Positions 30,138-33,792 of a stretch of 64,000 bases of DNA are shown here, one piece after another; positions within the stretch are counted from its first letter, which is position 1; each line of letters starts with the position of its first letter. The notes under the pieces were generated by a model. It was not told the DNA's origin. It saw only the letters and a program-made list of their open reading frames with translations, and searched no databases. This DNA is from Minisyncoccota bacterium (GTDB lineage: Bacteria; Patescibacteriota; Minisyncoccia; Phycocordibacterales; WO2-35-19): contig DATDXE010000015.1 of NCBI GenBank assembly GCA_036517255.1, positions 14,568 through 78,567 on the forward strand, written 5' to 3'. The position numbers and the translations under genes are program-made.

Positions 30138-30213
30138 TGGTGCGCGCACTAGGATTTGAACCTAGGACCTTTCCAGTATCAGTGGAATGCTCTACCAACT
30201 GAGCTATACGCGC
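30138..30213 (-). tRNA. tRNA-Ile (anticodon GAU)
   Basis: 76-nt cloverleaf folded by hand. Acceptor GCGCGUA/UGCGCGC, D-arm GCUC/GAGC, anticodon stem UUCCA/UGGAA with loop CUGAUAC, T-arm CUAGG-UUCAAAU-CCUAG. The 3' CCA is encoded. Confidence 0.85.
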
Positions 30214-30793: not shown

Positions 30794-30810
30794 GTAAAAA
30801 TTTAGACAGC

Positions 30811-30839
30811 AAAAAAGCCCTTATTTTAAGGGCTTTTTT
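30811..30839. terminator. Bidirectional intrinsic terminator (AAAAAAGCCCTTA-TTT-TAAGGGCTTTTTT)
   Basis: A-tract/stem/T-tract symmetry. It ends the 16S transcript on the minus strand. Confidence 0.6.
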
Positions 30840-31188
30840 GCTCGCCGGTTGGCGAAATAATATTCTTTGTTTTGTTCCGTCCTACTATTTAGTTTTCTGC
30901 TGTCTTTCCAGCTGCCACCCGCCTGTAACGCTATGCTTAGCATTGCGGGCAGGTACCATTTTAAGTTGTGATCAAACTATTGCGCACTCGATCGAGTTGC
31001 ACAATATCGACTGTCATTCCTTTCCTCCGACATAAGTCAGAGAAGAGGAAATTTTCACCTTGAAATATTCCACGAGCAGCTTCCGCTACCCGTGCCTTGT
31101 TACGACTTACTCCCTGTCATTGAGCTTACCTTAGTCCCACTTGCGTGAGCCTTTGGGTACTCCCAACTCCCTTGAGTTGACGGGCGGA

Positions 31189-32075
31189 TTGTGATTTTCT
31201 CACATCCCCTGAAGTATTTAATATAAATACTTCACCATACTGCTTCCCATCATTTCACAGTTTTGGACGTAGCGAGCAGATTTCCTGCACTACGCGAGCC
31301 CGATAGTTTTCAAATTCATTTTTGCTTTTAGCTTCCTGATTCTCTCTAAACCATCTTTAGTAAGATGATCTTTTGATTGAACTAGTTTGGCTACTTTACA
31401 AAATAATTCAAAATTTTTCTGTTTAGAAAAACTCTGAAGAGGATATTGTTTGAAAAATGGGATCAATATTTTAAGAACATCTGAATATGAACTTATGCTG
31501 TATCTATAGCATTGAGCATGGTTAACTCTCTGCTCTTTTTGAAAATACACAGCTCCACATTTCAGAGTATTCTTAACTTTTTCCAGAAGGAATCTATCTT
31601 TCTCCTGCATTTTTATATGAAAATGCAATTGAACATTAAACCCCATTCTGTAGAGAGAAGATTTTCTTACATTTACGTAAAAACATCCTTCTCCATCCGT
31701 TAATCCTACAATATACTCATTTGAAACTATCGGTTTTGTCCTTTCCACACATATTTAATATTATTGTTTTAATTATAACATTAAGTTGACGCATGGTACT
31801 ACGACTCAGCTGACTCCCAGCACTAATTTAGTGCTGGGTCTCCCAGGGTCATTTATAACTCCTTTCCAAACATCCCAACGAAGATTTTTGTTCGTGCTTC
31901 CTTCAGACTCACCGCAGAAGTCGCACATCTCTTTTTTGATCGGGCTACCTTTCGCTACTAGGATCCTTCGGTCCTCACATTACTGTAGGGGACCTACCCG
32001 TTCGCTAAATTGCTTTCGCAACTATCAGACTTTAACTGATTGGATTTATAAACTGCCTGGCGCCTTTAATTTTGA
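31189..32075 (-). mobile_element. Intervening sequence / intron-like insertion in 16S near E. coli position about 1390-1400, carrying a homing endonuclease ORF
   Basis: The conserved TGTACACACCGCCCGT block is split: GTACAAG sits at 32076-32082 and GACGGGCGG at 31180-31188. Confidence 0.65.
31290..31748 (-). CDS. LAGLIDADG homing endonuclease (single-motif)
   Basis: IVGLTDGEGCF dodecapeptide motif; 152 aa; same orientation as the rRNA. Confidence 0.7.
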   Translation of the reverse strand: MERTKPIVSNEYIVGLTDGEGCFYVNVRKSSLYRMGFNVQLHFHIKMQEKDRFLLEKVKNTLKCGAVYFQKEQRVNHAQCYRYSISSYSDVLKILIPFFKQYPLQSFSKQKNFELFCKVAKLVQSKDHLTKDGLERIRKLKAKMNLKTIGLA

Positions 32076-32298
32076 GTACAAGACTTGAGAACGTATTCAC
32101 CGCGGTATAGCTGACCCGCGATTACTAGCGATTCCAACTTCATGGGGTCGAGTTTCAGCCCCCAATCCGAACTGGCGCCACTTTTCTTAGGATTAGCTCA
32201 GTCTTGCGACGTCGCGACCCGTTGTAGTGGCGATTGTATTATGCGTGTAGCCCAAGGCGTCAGAGGGACATGCTGACCTGGCGTCATCCTCGCTTCCT

Positions 32299-32441
32299 CC
32301 CAGCACGAAGTGAACGAAGTTCACTTCAAGTAAAAAGTTCATAAAGTTATAAAGTTTTTAAAGTAAGGAAAATTCTTACTTTATAACTTTACAAACTTTC
32401 AACTCCTTAACTCGAAGTGCGTTCACGCACTTTGTGCTGGG
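32299..32441 (-). other. 16S expansion segment of about 120 nt (V7 region), AT-rich nested palindrome
   Basis: The interval between the GGAGGAAG...GACGTC block and CATGCATCACCTG is about twice the canonical length. Outer stem CCCAGCACGAAGTG/CACTTTGTGCTGGG; inner AAGTTATAAAGT/ACTTTATAACTT. Confidence 0.5.
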
Positions 32442-33792
32442 CAGTCTCGGCTGACACTTGTAACAGCCAACGAGGGTTGCGTTCGTTACCCCACTTAAGG
32501 GAACAACTCAAATCACGAACTGACGACGGCCATGCATCACCTGTTCAAGTGTTCTTGCGAACGTTTACATTTCTGTATTCTTCACTTGAATTTCTAGCCT
32601 TGGTAAGGTTTTTCGTTTGTTGTCGAATTGAACCGCATAATCCACCGCTTGTGCAAGTCCCCGTCTATTCCTTTGAGTTTTAAGCTTGCGCTCGTACTAC
32701 CCAGGCGCCTCTCTTAACGCGTTAGCTTCGCCTCCCAGAGGGTCGATACTCCGGAAAGCTAGAGAGGAACGTTTAGGGCGTAGACTACGCGGGTATCTAA
32801 TCCGCTTCGCTACCTACGCTTTCGTGTTTCAGTGTCAGGAGTGCGCCAGTGAATTGCCTTCGCTTTTGGTGTTCCCCATGATATCAACGGATTTCACCCC
32901 TACTCCATGAGTTCCATTCACCCCTCGCATCCTCAAGCTCTGCCGTTTCTTTCGCATTTCTCCAATTAGGTCGGAGTCTTTAACGAAAGACTAACAGTGC
33001 CACCTACACACCCTTTACGCCCAGTGATTCCGGATAACGCTTGGGGCCTCTGTATTACCGCTCCTGCTGGCACAGAGTTTGGAGCCCCTTATTCATGAGG
33101 TACTATCGTCCCGAAGGATTTCTCCCTCATAAAAGACCTTTACGTCCCGAAGGACTTCATCAGTCACGCGGCGTCGCTCGATCAGGCTTTCGCCCATTGT
33201 CGAATATTCTCGGCTGCAGCCACCCGTAGGTGTATGGACCGTTTCTCAGTTCCATCGGTGGGGGTCAGCCTCTCAGCTCCCCTAAGCGTCATAGCCTTGG
33301 TAAGCCATTACCTTACCAACTAGCTGATACTCCGCAGGCTCTTCCTTAAGCGTCTTGCGACTTTACTCTTACGAGACTATTTGGGATTACCTCCTCTTTC
33401 GAGAAGCTATACCAAACTTAAGGGAAGATACCTACGTGTTACTACCTCGTCTGCCGGTACCTCGGTCTTGCGACCTCGGCCCCTTGACTTGCATGCCTTA
33501 TCCACGCCGCCAGCGTTCATCCTGAGCTAGGATCAAACTCTAAATATAATTAGACGGAACAAAACGAAGAATACTATATCCTGTCATTTCATATTTTCTA
33601 ATTTTTCAGTTTGATCTTCTAACTCAAAAAATCATTGTTTGTGTGTACTTATTTTATTACTCAAAGAAATATAGACTAGGACTTACATCTCAATCTTATA
33701 TATTTCTTATTTCAAGTATGAAAATGTCAAAGACCAATCAAAACTCCCCACGAAGGAGAGCAGGGTAAAGTATAAGGATAAAAATAGGCCTG

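Follow-up and report, generated by a model that had tools for sequence, protein, structure and literature searches.

Group-II-like insertions in 16S rRNA genes have been described from the Candidate Phyla Radiation (CPR) and from large sulfur bacteria of the Thiotrichaceae. According to the main text of a survey of 380 CPR 16S genes, such insertions occur only at position 1400, a site designated 16IS9; 39 of 53 insertions contain open reading frames (ORFs) for LAGLIDADG proteins, mostly of the LAGLIDADG_1 type, and none encodes a reverse transcriptase (Tsurumaki et al. 2024, J Bacteriol, PMC11270868). They were classed there by Rfam matches only and termed 'reminiscent of group II'. The rns-1396 family, group IIC introns with a LAGLIDADG homing endonuclease (LHE), was first seen in Thiomargarita (Salman 2012 PNAS) and is reported only from four genera of the Thiotrichaceae; a 5' linker is present in all members, the second exon-binding site (EBS2) is absent, and a single-motif LHE is located in domain IV (Liu et al. 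2026, Genome Biology and Evolution, PMC13190283). Departure from the GUGYG consensus at the 5' end is known for LHE-bearing group II families, and EBS2 is typically missing both from these and from IIC introns (PMC13190283). Here, a stretch of 64,000 nucleotides from a Minisyncoccota bacterium (assembly GCA_036517255.1, contig DATDXE010000015.1, positions 14,568 to 78,567), referred to as the window, was analyzed. Its 16S rRNA gene is interrupted between positions 1398 and 1399 by an insert of 885 nt, very probably a compact self-splicing intron of group II type in which a single-motif LAGLIDADG endonuclease has taken the place of the usual reverse transcriptase. The element is a member of the 16IS9 group-II-like LAGLIDADG insertions of the CPR as these are described in the main text of PMC11270868, with which it shares the host group, the rRNA site, the single LAGLIDADG_1 domain, and a weak Rfam group II signal.

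With the rns-1396 introns, the CPR family has in common the 5' linker, the single-motif LHE in domain IV, the contact of the exon guide with both the intron-binding site IBS1 and the 3' exon, a compact domain I, and an insertion site within two to three nucleotides; no EBS2 was noticed in the CPR family. The two differ in their hosts, Thiotrichaceae versus Patescibacteria, and in the exact site, 1396 versus 1398/1399 (1399/1400 in one subfamily). Judged by these architectural traits, the two families may be related.

Further LHE-bearing group II introns, of subclass IIB1 and with 5'-terminal insertions, have reportedly been described from fungal and algal mitochondrial rRNA genes by Li and colleagues in 2011 and by Mullineux and colleagues in 2010. 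Like the CPR family, these introns are reported to encode an LHE instead of a reverse transcriptase, to have extra nucleotides before GUGYG, and to reside in rRNA genes; they have lost EBS2, which was not noticed in the CPR family either. They differ by their subclass and by LHEs with mostly two motifs, and in them the linker goes along with loss of the branch-point A, whereas the CPR family keeps an A at position -8. The group IIC intron O.i.I1 of Oceanobacillus iheyensis is characterized by a CGC triad, a small domain I, no EBS2, and hydrolytic splicing in vitro despite the presence of a branch A. The triad and the small domain I recur in the window's family, and no EBS2 was noticed there either. 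In contrast to the window insert with its linker, split domain V, LHE, and rRNA site, O.i.I1 has no 5' linker and an uninterrupted domain V, encodes or once encoded a reverse transcriptase, and targets terminator hairpins.

Position of the insert in the 16S rRNA gene

Searches with the covariance model for bacterial small subunit (SSU) rRNA, RF00177, revealed one SSU gene in the window, on the minus strand, with a score of 1223 bits and a start at position 33548. The model was unable to bridge the insert; its last 140 positions were forced onto unrelated sequence, and the 3' end was mis-aligned into the insert. For this reason, the 16S gene appears to software to be about 1.5 kb long. Alignment to such a model had been proposed in a preliminary description of this DNA to fix the junctions; it provided the gene, the strand, and the 5' end, but the junctions and the 3' exon had to be read directly. 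The gene extends over 31043..33548 (minus strand, as all features of the gene and the intron given below), a range that takes in the intron and an expanded helix 40; its 3' end is approximate.

On the minus strand, the 16S gene reads ..GAAUACGUUCUCAAGUCUUGUACUCA, followed by 885 nt and then by CCGCCCGUCAACUCAAGGGAG..GUCGUAACAAGG. The 5' exon ends at 32073 with ..GUCUUGUACUCA, the intron occupies 31188..32072, and the 3' exon begins at 31187 with CCGCCCGUCAAC, its start CCGCCCGU (C1399-U1406) covering 31180..31187. The block that is split reads UUGUACUCA/CCGCCCGU in the host lineage, with U replacing A at E. coli position 1396. In E. coli numbering, which we take from the block GYACACACCGCCCGU at 1392-1406, the break lies between A1398 and C1399. 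The first base of the intron is A and that of the 3' exon is C, while the last base of the intron is U and that of the 5' exon is A; since the terminal intron bases differ from the matching exon bases, the boundaries are unambiguous.

The junction was confirmed by intron-less alleles. The predicted ligated 24-mer GTCTTGTACTCACCGCCCGTCAAC is present without interruption in at least 120 metagenome contigs, and the window sequence, spliced in silico, aligned with intron-less 16S genes in a single high-scoring segment pair across the junction, the best match being 91.7% over 360 nt (locus L090). Thus, the interruption of the decoding centre by about 0.9 kb and the splitting of a conserved block, both postulated in the preliminary description, were verified, the block being not contiguous in the window. 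Of the boundaries given there, 31189 was correct to within one nucleotide and 32075 was off by three. Its statements on the 152-aa LAGLIDADG ORF, on a CPR host, and on the lack of a group I terminal G at the boundary also agree with the data below.

One scaffold of a metagenome-assembled genome (MAG) contains both states (L077, positions 2040-2400): an intron-containing 3' junction is followed by a run of N and then by an uninterrupted, intron-less copy reading CCTTGTACTCACCGCCCGTCA, the exon flanks being identical. The intron-less copy is a further independent check of the junction. The arrangement of the scaffold hints at a presence/absence polymorphism in the population, as homing predicts, or at a scaffolding artefact.

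For comparative analysis, homologues of the encoded protein were collected. There were 633 at E<=1e-5, and those carrying an organism name are from MAGs of CPR/Patescibacteria. Genome contigs, one genome per species, were scanned, yielding 141 stretches that encode a relative, of which 80 loci were kept. In 70 of the 80 the ORF is located between the same 16S flanks, which gives 71 copies with the window. Counts for domains V and VI refer to 65 distinct sequences, and RNAalifold predictions for domains I and II to 70.

Probable ribozyme domains and endonuclease reading frame

The insert displays the six-domain layout of group II introns: a domain I closed by a basal stem, domains II and III, domain IV with the ORF, and domains V and VI. 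Minimum free energy (MFE) folding of the 5' and 3' parts of the window copy gave the same helices as the family, and every helix of domains I to III, V, and VI is complementary in the window sequence. IBS1 is formed by the final ACUCA of the 5' exon (E. coli 1394-1398; 32073..32077). These five nucleotides are complementary to the exon-binding site EBS1 in the terminal loop of the last domain I stem, which reads GGUGAGU together with its 5' GG (31907..31913). Pairing with ACUCA can continue into the 3' exon, whose first two nucleotides are CC, so that the loop spans the ligated junction. In the aligned loci, both partners covary: the exon sequence ACACA is accompanied by GGUGUGU in six out of six loci, and ACUCA by GGUGAGU or GGUGGGU. 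By this covariation, the 5' splice site is fixed at the rRNA boundary.

In about a dozen loci (L004, L022, L023, L026, L036, L043, L044, L046, L050, L065, L207, and L208), the intron is located between C1399 and C1400 (..UCAC, intron ending in ..CAUU, CGCCCG). Only in this subfamily is the EBS1 loop shortened to GGUGAG, abutting the stem, and the U that pairs with A1394 is lost. Judged from the alignment, the L004 type is a coherent shift of guide and site together by one nucleotide.

The splice site is followed by a linker of variable sequence, AAAUUAA in the window (32066..32072). Its length is 7 nt in 62 out of 69 loci, whereas L073 has 41 nt. Downstream of the linker, the vestigial 5' consensus AGGCG is found at intron nucleotides 8-12 (32061..32065) in place of the canonical GUGYG, of which the family keeps only GYG. 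The variants counted were AUGCG (21), AGGCG (10), AUGUG (9), CUGUG (9), GUGCG (3), and others. The additional length in L073 is a 41-nt hairpin inside the linker, and the domain II loop of L001 is enlarged by an insertion of about 200 nt (positions 2200-2420); linker and domain II tip are evidently free to grow. A GUGCGAC string near 31926, considered as a canonical group II 5' end, was rejected, as it is the 5' strand of the EBS1 stem.

Domain I (31843..32060) was delineated by alifold consensus and pair counts and consists of I(i) (CCAGG/CCUGG), I(ii), IA, IB, IC, tipped by GUAA, and ID, which carries the EBS1 stem-loop. For the family, RNAalifold likewise predicted a closed domain with IC tipped by a GNRA loop. 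Domains I and II comprise 68 pairs, 93% of them canonical and 57 with double changes, compared with about 40% canonical pairs in controls slid by one to three columns. Domain II is a hairpin, CCCAGCAC..GUGCUGGG (31816..31838), which is also backed by pair counts. The adjacent J2/3 region AGUCAGCUGA (31806..31815; family consensus AGAAGUCAGCUGC) is a conserved block aligning with AGAAgUCAGCAGA in the consensus of RF01998 (group-II-D1D4-1). Domain III (31738..31805) has a basal GUC/GAC stem and an inner stem, with the internal loop GUAGUA/AAAG between them; the ORF begins within the 3' strand of this domain. The basal pairs are formed in 58 out of 58 sequences, with the variants GCC/GGC and AUC/GAU, the inner stem covaries as well, and the internal loop is conserved in the family as (G/A)UAGUA / GAAG. 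The match to RF01998 lies exactly over domain II, J2/3, and domain III, with 22.2 bits in the window and 38.0, 33.9, 32.2, and 28.2 bits in L073, L060, L036, and L012, respectively.

Domain V overlaps the stop codon and is in perfect register in all copies, with the family sequence CUCGCGUAGU-GCGG-GAAAU-CCGC-UC-GCUACGU-GGG. It forms a lower helix of 10 bp, a 2-nt bulge on the 3' strand, an upper helix of 4 bp, and a GAAAN loop. Canonically, domain V measures about 34 nt and combines an AGC or CGC triad, a G.U wobble within it, a 3'-strand bulge of 2 nt, and a GNRA loop. The window version (31207..31298), supported by covariation and an unconstrained MFE fold, reads CUCGCGUAGU-GCAG-GAAAU-CUGC-UC-GCUACGU...GGG and shows the CGC triad (31294-31296), the G.U wobble, and the 2-nt bulge, but is interrupted by 57 nt. 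Counted from the bulge, C-G, G.U, and C-G are found at the catalytic-triad positions of group II introns, with G.U in 62 out of 65 sequences; a CGC triad with a conserved wobble is also found in IIC introns. All 14 pairs of the domain are formed in 62 to 65 of the 65 sequences, and seven exhibit compensatory changes. Examples are GC/AU at 41/24 and 52/12 in the upper helix, and GC to AU, CG, or UA, UA to GC, and CG to UA in the lower helix; AU to GC was also seen. Exceptions at the U.G pair flanking the bulge are L070, where C.A is found (a possible A+.C wobble isostere), and L054, where U-A is found.

Domain VI begins two nucleotides after domain V and is a minimal 5-bp hairpin in the window, UGUGA-GAAAA-UCACA (31190..31204), the basal four pairs of which covary in the family. 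Group II introns carry in this domain a bulged branch-point A, 7-8 nt before the 3' splice site. An A at position -8 (31195 in the window) is present in 65 out of 65 sequences. It is bulged where a distal 3-bp stem forms, which is the case in 49 to 55 of 61 sequences, about 80% of the relatives; in the window it is the last nucleotide of the loop and not bulged. The intron ends with AY, as ..AAU in the window; AAU was found in 54 of the 65 sequences, AUU in nine, and GAU and CAU in one each.

Domain IV is occupied by an intact ORF of 152 aa in rRNA orientation (31290..31748). It starts with GTG, most relatives using ATG, and specifies a single-motif LAGLIDADG homing endonuclease with the motif IVGLTDGEGCF, including the acidic motif residue (Pfam LAGLIDADG_1, E 7.8e-25, 88.2 bits). 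The ORF overlaps the ribozyme at both ends, with its start in the 3' strand of domain III (31738-31748) and its stop in the 5' strand of domain V (31290-31298). The first codons (M-G-R-T, AUGGGAAGGAC) correspond to the inner stem, internal loop, and basal stem of domain III, and the last codons with the stop (CUC GCG UAG) to the 5' strand of domain V. Such a double function would explain why the protein has an invariant GRTKP start and GLA end.

Matches in the PDB are to the I-OnuI family, and I-OnuI, I-SmaMI, I-AabMI, and I-LtrI (PDB 4lq0, 4yit, 3qqy, and others) are the nearest solved structures (E ~1e-47 to 1e-40). Each half of these two-domain enzymes matches the whole 152-aa protein with E values around 1e-47 (I-OnuI family, 6e-47). 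The enzymes of this family are monomers with two domains, encoded in group I introns or rps3 genes of fungal mitochondria, whereas the window protein is a single domain and, judged by this comparison, should act as a homodimer. The half-sites of the homing site, for which palindromy is expected with a homodimer, agree at only 4 of 24 positions. I-ShaI, the only characterized LHE from CPR, was rejected as a member of the present family, since it is derived from a 23S group I intron. A protein of 100% identity belongs, by its name, to Candidatus Paceibacterota, and the identical protein is present on nine contigs.

A number of observations weigh against the assignment to group II. GUGYG is not located at the splice site, the intron beginning with AAAUUAA. 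No EBS2 was noticed, a systematic search for it not having been made. The RF01998 score of the window, 22.2 bits, is below the curated cut-off of 35 bits. RF00029, the model for domains V and VI, gave no match at E<=10, neither in the window nor in L012, a relative without the insertion in domain V; the assignment of domain V is therefore based on shape, position, and covariation. Furthermore, its loop is GAAAN of 5 nt on an upper helix of 4 bp and not a GNRA tetraloop on 5 bp. In the window copy, finally, domain V is split by 57 nt beside the triad helix and domain VI is minimal, so that the activity of this copy is no more than putative. Group I and group II intron models had been named as a check in the preliminary description, which touched on the group II option only in this way; of these, RF01998 gave the match below its cut-off, and RF00028 and RF00029 gave none.

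The 57-nt insertion (31210..31266) consists of two hairpins in the 3' strand of domain V, after GCUACGU and before the closing GGG, where it separates the triad-helix G.U from the last basal pairs. In the unconstrained MFE fold of the 3' region of the window, a four-way junction is formed by CUC/GGG, the rest of domain V, and the two inserted hairpins. Insertions arranged in this way are also present in L007, L027, L035, L038, L040, L054, L058, L001, L201-L204, and L205-L206. As the four copies L201-L204 are identical to one another, and likewise L205 and L206, these six loci add only two distinct sequences. The window's nearest relatives by protein identity, L201-L204 (90%), L001 (89%), and L205-L206 (78%), are thus among the carriers. 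Hairpin 1 of the window contains the motif CCAAAA/UAUGG and a GUGAAAUGAUGGGAAG loop. Its motif is shared by L001, L027, L035, L038, L058, and L201-L206, while L007, L040, and L054 differ in sequence at the same site. Within the window's subgroup, the internal loop CCAAA(A/G).../...(U/C)AUGG and the GUGAAAUGAUGGGAAG-type loop are kept, and the stem varies between CUG/CAG, UCG/CGA, and CCG/CGG. Hairpin 2 has a different sequence in every lineage, but pairing is always kept.

The motif of hairpin 1 is similar to CCUAAG/UAUGG, the 11-nt receptor for GAAA tetraloops. Domain I was searched for a GAAA tetraloop that would co-occur with the module as its partner, but no clear association was observed. 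Because a clade with intact ORFs has kept the insertion, with compensatory changes in it, we read it as a maintained peripheral module, tolerated or stabilizing, and not as a sign of decay. Tentatively, the two-hairpin module of about 50-57 nt in this subclade could be regarded as turning domain V into a four-way junction. If these introns still splice, they would be a natural example of a group II ribozyme whose domain V is branched, and the module might serve in tertiary anchoring or protein binding and compensate for the displaced 5' end. In the literature surveyed, no description of such a ribozyme was found, and the branch may be the one feature that is new.

Proposed splicing and alternative explanations

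From the fold, the exon guide, and the junction seen in the sequences, we infer excision and ligation of the insert as follows. Pre-16S rRNA would be transcribed, and the ribozyme, placed by the EBS1-IBS1 pairing, would cut between A32073 and A32072. The first step would probably be hydrolysis rather than branching, since the 7-nt linker moves the vestigial GUGYG with its G1 off the splice site and the A at -8 in the window is situated in a hairpin loop and not in a bulge. The analogy with the mitochondrial group IIB1-LHE introns also favours hydrolysis, since LHE-bearing group II introns of mitochondria with 5' insertions reportedly gave only linear products in the hands of Li, Costa, Bassi, Lai and Michel in 2011. 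Hydrolytic splicing of group IIC introns in vitro, described in PMC4748821, points in the same direction. The invariant A at -8 of the family leaves room for branching, at least in relatives in which it is bulged.

In the second step, the freed 3'-OH would attack after U31188, ligating UCA to CCG and leaving the decoding centre intact. Nucleotides 1396-1400 of 16S rRNA line the mRNA/P-site path. Since, in addition, only one SSU gene is visible, removal with ligation would be the only arrangement fitting a working ribosome. The excised RNA or the precursor would be the message for the endonuclease, and a homodimer of this enzyme would cut intron-less 16S rDNA at GTCTTGTACTCA/CCGCCCGTCAAC, driving homing at the DNA level by repair. 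As the start of the ORF is buried in domain III and the stop in domain V, folding of the ribozyme and translation probably compete.

Alternatively, the insert could be an intervening sequence (IVS) that host RNases cut out with no subsequent ligation; the 16S rRNA would then be fragmented at 1398/1399, and the ribozyme-like fold would be a relic or capable of cleavage only. IVSs that fragment the rRNA are known from bacteria and suspected for CPR in the main text of PMC11270868, and the 5' linker and the broken domain V of the window copy could mean that full splicing has been lost. However, a terminal stem of the RNase III type is not present between the ends of the insert, the best duplex being weaker than the mean of shuffled sequences, and the EBS1 loop, which covaries with the exon, extends across the ligated junction. 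Domain V, domain VI, the A at -8, and the 3' AU are kept across 65 distinct sequences, which is expected only if both splicing steps matter. In addition, a nick between helices 28 and 44 would fall, by established ribosome structure, into the mRNA/P-site path. Fragmentation is therefore considered improbable. The same applies to an unspliced insertion, excised or left in the rRNA, as envisaged in the preliminary description: a terminal stem is missing and a covarying ribozyme surrounds the ORF.

As a further alternative, the window copy could be decaying and non-functional, with no splicing or splicing only with a host or trans factor, and the 16S gene would then be compromised or an assembly chimera. 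The GTG start where relatives use ATG, the insertion in domain V, and the minimal domain VI, which depart from the family consensus, could be taken as signs of decay. On the other hand, all helices of domains I to III, V, and VI are complementary in the window itself, EBS1 matches its own exon, and the ORF is of full length, with the identical protein on nine contigs. The same insertion in domain V occurs in relatives whose endonucleases are 78-90% identical, with compensatory changes in its stems, and there is only one SSU gene in the window. Decay of this copy is thus very unlikely.

A group I intron with the LAGLIDADG ORF in a peripheral loop and splicing by guanosine attack, also named in the preliminary description, is hardly credible: although group I introns are the usual carriers of LAGLIDADG ORFs and abound in CPR rRNA genes (main text of PMC11270868), RF00028 gave no match at E<=10 in 1.3 kb while the same model detected other group I introns in related loci at 57-76 bits, the 3' boundary is without a terminal G (the intron ends in U, the 5' exon in A), and the exon guide is the terminal loop of domain I and not an internal guide sequence at the 5' end of the intron. 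R/S-like strings resembling P7, UCAGCUGAGUCGUAGU and GCUACGUCC, had been recognized by eye; this assignment was dropped, because the strands are the domain III loop and the domain V stem, each with a covarying partner of its own.

Neighbouring sequences and significance

Additional elements were detected in some of the related loci. Group I introns (RF00028, 33-76 bits) are located shortly downstream of the 16S 3' exon in L040 (1995-2296), L047 (1027-1334), and L027 (1382-1666 and 1986-2188), and L207 and L208 contain a second LAGLIDADG ORF about 200 nt past the first. The window contains neither a downstream group I intron nor a second LAGLIDADG ORF.

Within the 16S gene of the window, helix 40, a 15-nt hairpin in E. 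coli (1161-1175), is replaced by an AU-rich branched hairpin of 141 nt, CCAGCAC...GUGCUGG (32300-32440). It has an MFE of -62.4 kcal/mol (z = -8.9 versus shuffles) and is without ORF and without intron signal; it could be an expansion segment or an IVS of the RNase III type. The 3' tail of the gene after helix 45 (31043-31075) reads GUGGAAUAUUUCAAGGUGAAAAUUUCCUCUUCU and not GGAUCACCUCCUUA. A canonical CCUCC anti-Shine-Dalgarno sequence is not in the usual register, only UUCCUCUU being found about 20 nt further on, and the 16S tail in L077 is likewise non-canonical (GUGGAUUAAUUCC...). A strong hairpin resembling an intrinsic terminator, AAAAAAGCCCUUAAAAUAAGGGCUUUUUUG, is located 3' of the 16S gene (30800-30850, minus strand). 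Beyond it, a single tRNA is encoded (30141-30213, minus strand), and no 23S rRNA is present within the window; the rRNA operon appears to be unlinked.

The kind of element described here is already known. Contributed here are the exact map of this 16S gene, the covariation-backed structure of the CPR family, and the domain V branch variant. In the main-text sections of PMC11270868, neither a domain map nor the EBS1 guide, the 5' linker, the subfamily shifted by one nucleotide, or the insertion in domain V is described. As the gene is 2.5 kb long and is truncated by covariance models, recovery of its true rRNA requires that the intron be mapped exactly (32072..31188). The basic picture, that rRNA genes of CPR bacteria carry homing-endonuclease introns, is unchanged. 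To it, the comparative set adds a full domain map of the group II-LHE family of the CPR, which, unlike the mitochondrial precedent, joins a 5' linker with a putative branch-point A that is invariant. The bacterial LHE group II family is listed only from Thiotrichaceae (PMC13190283), and Patescibacteria may be its main reservoir.

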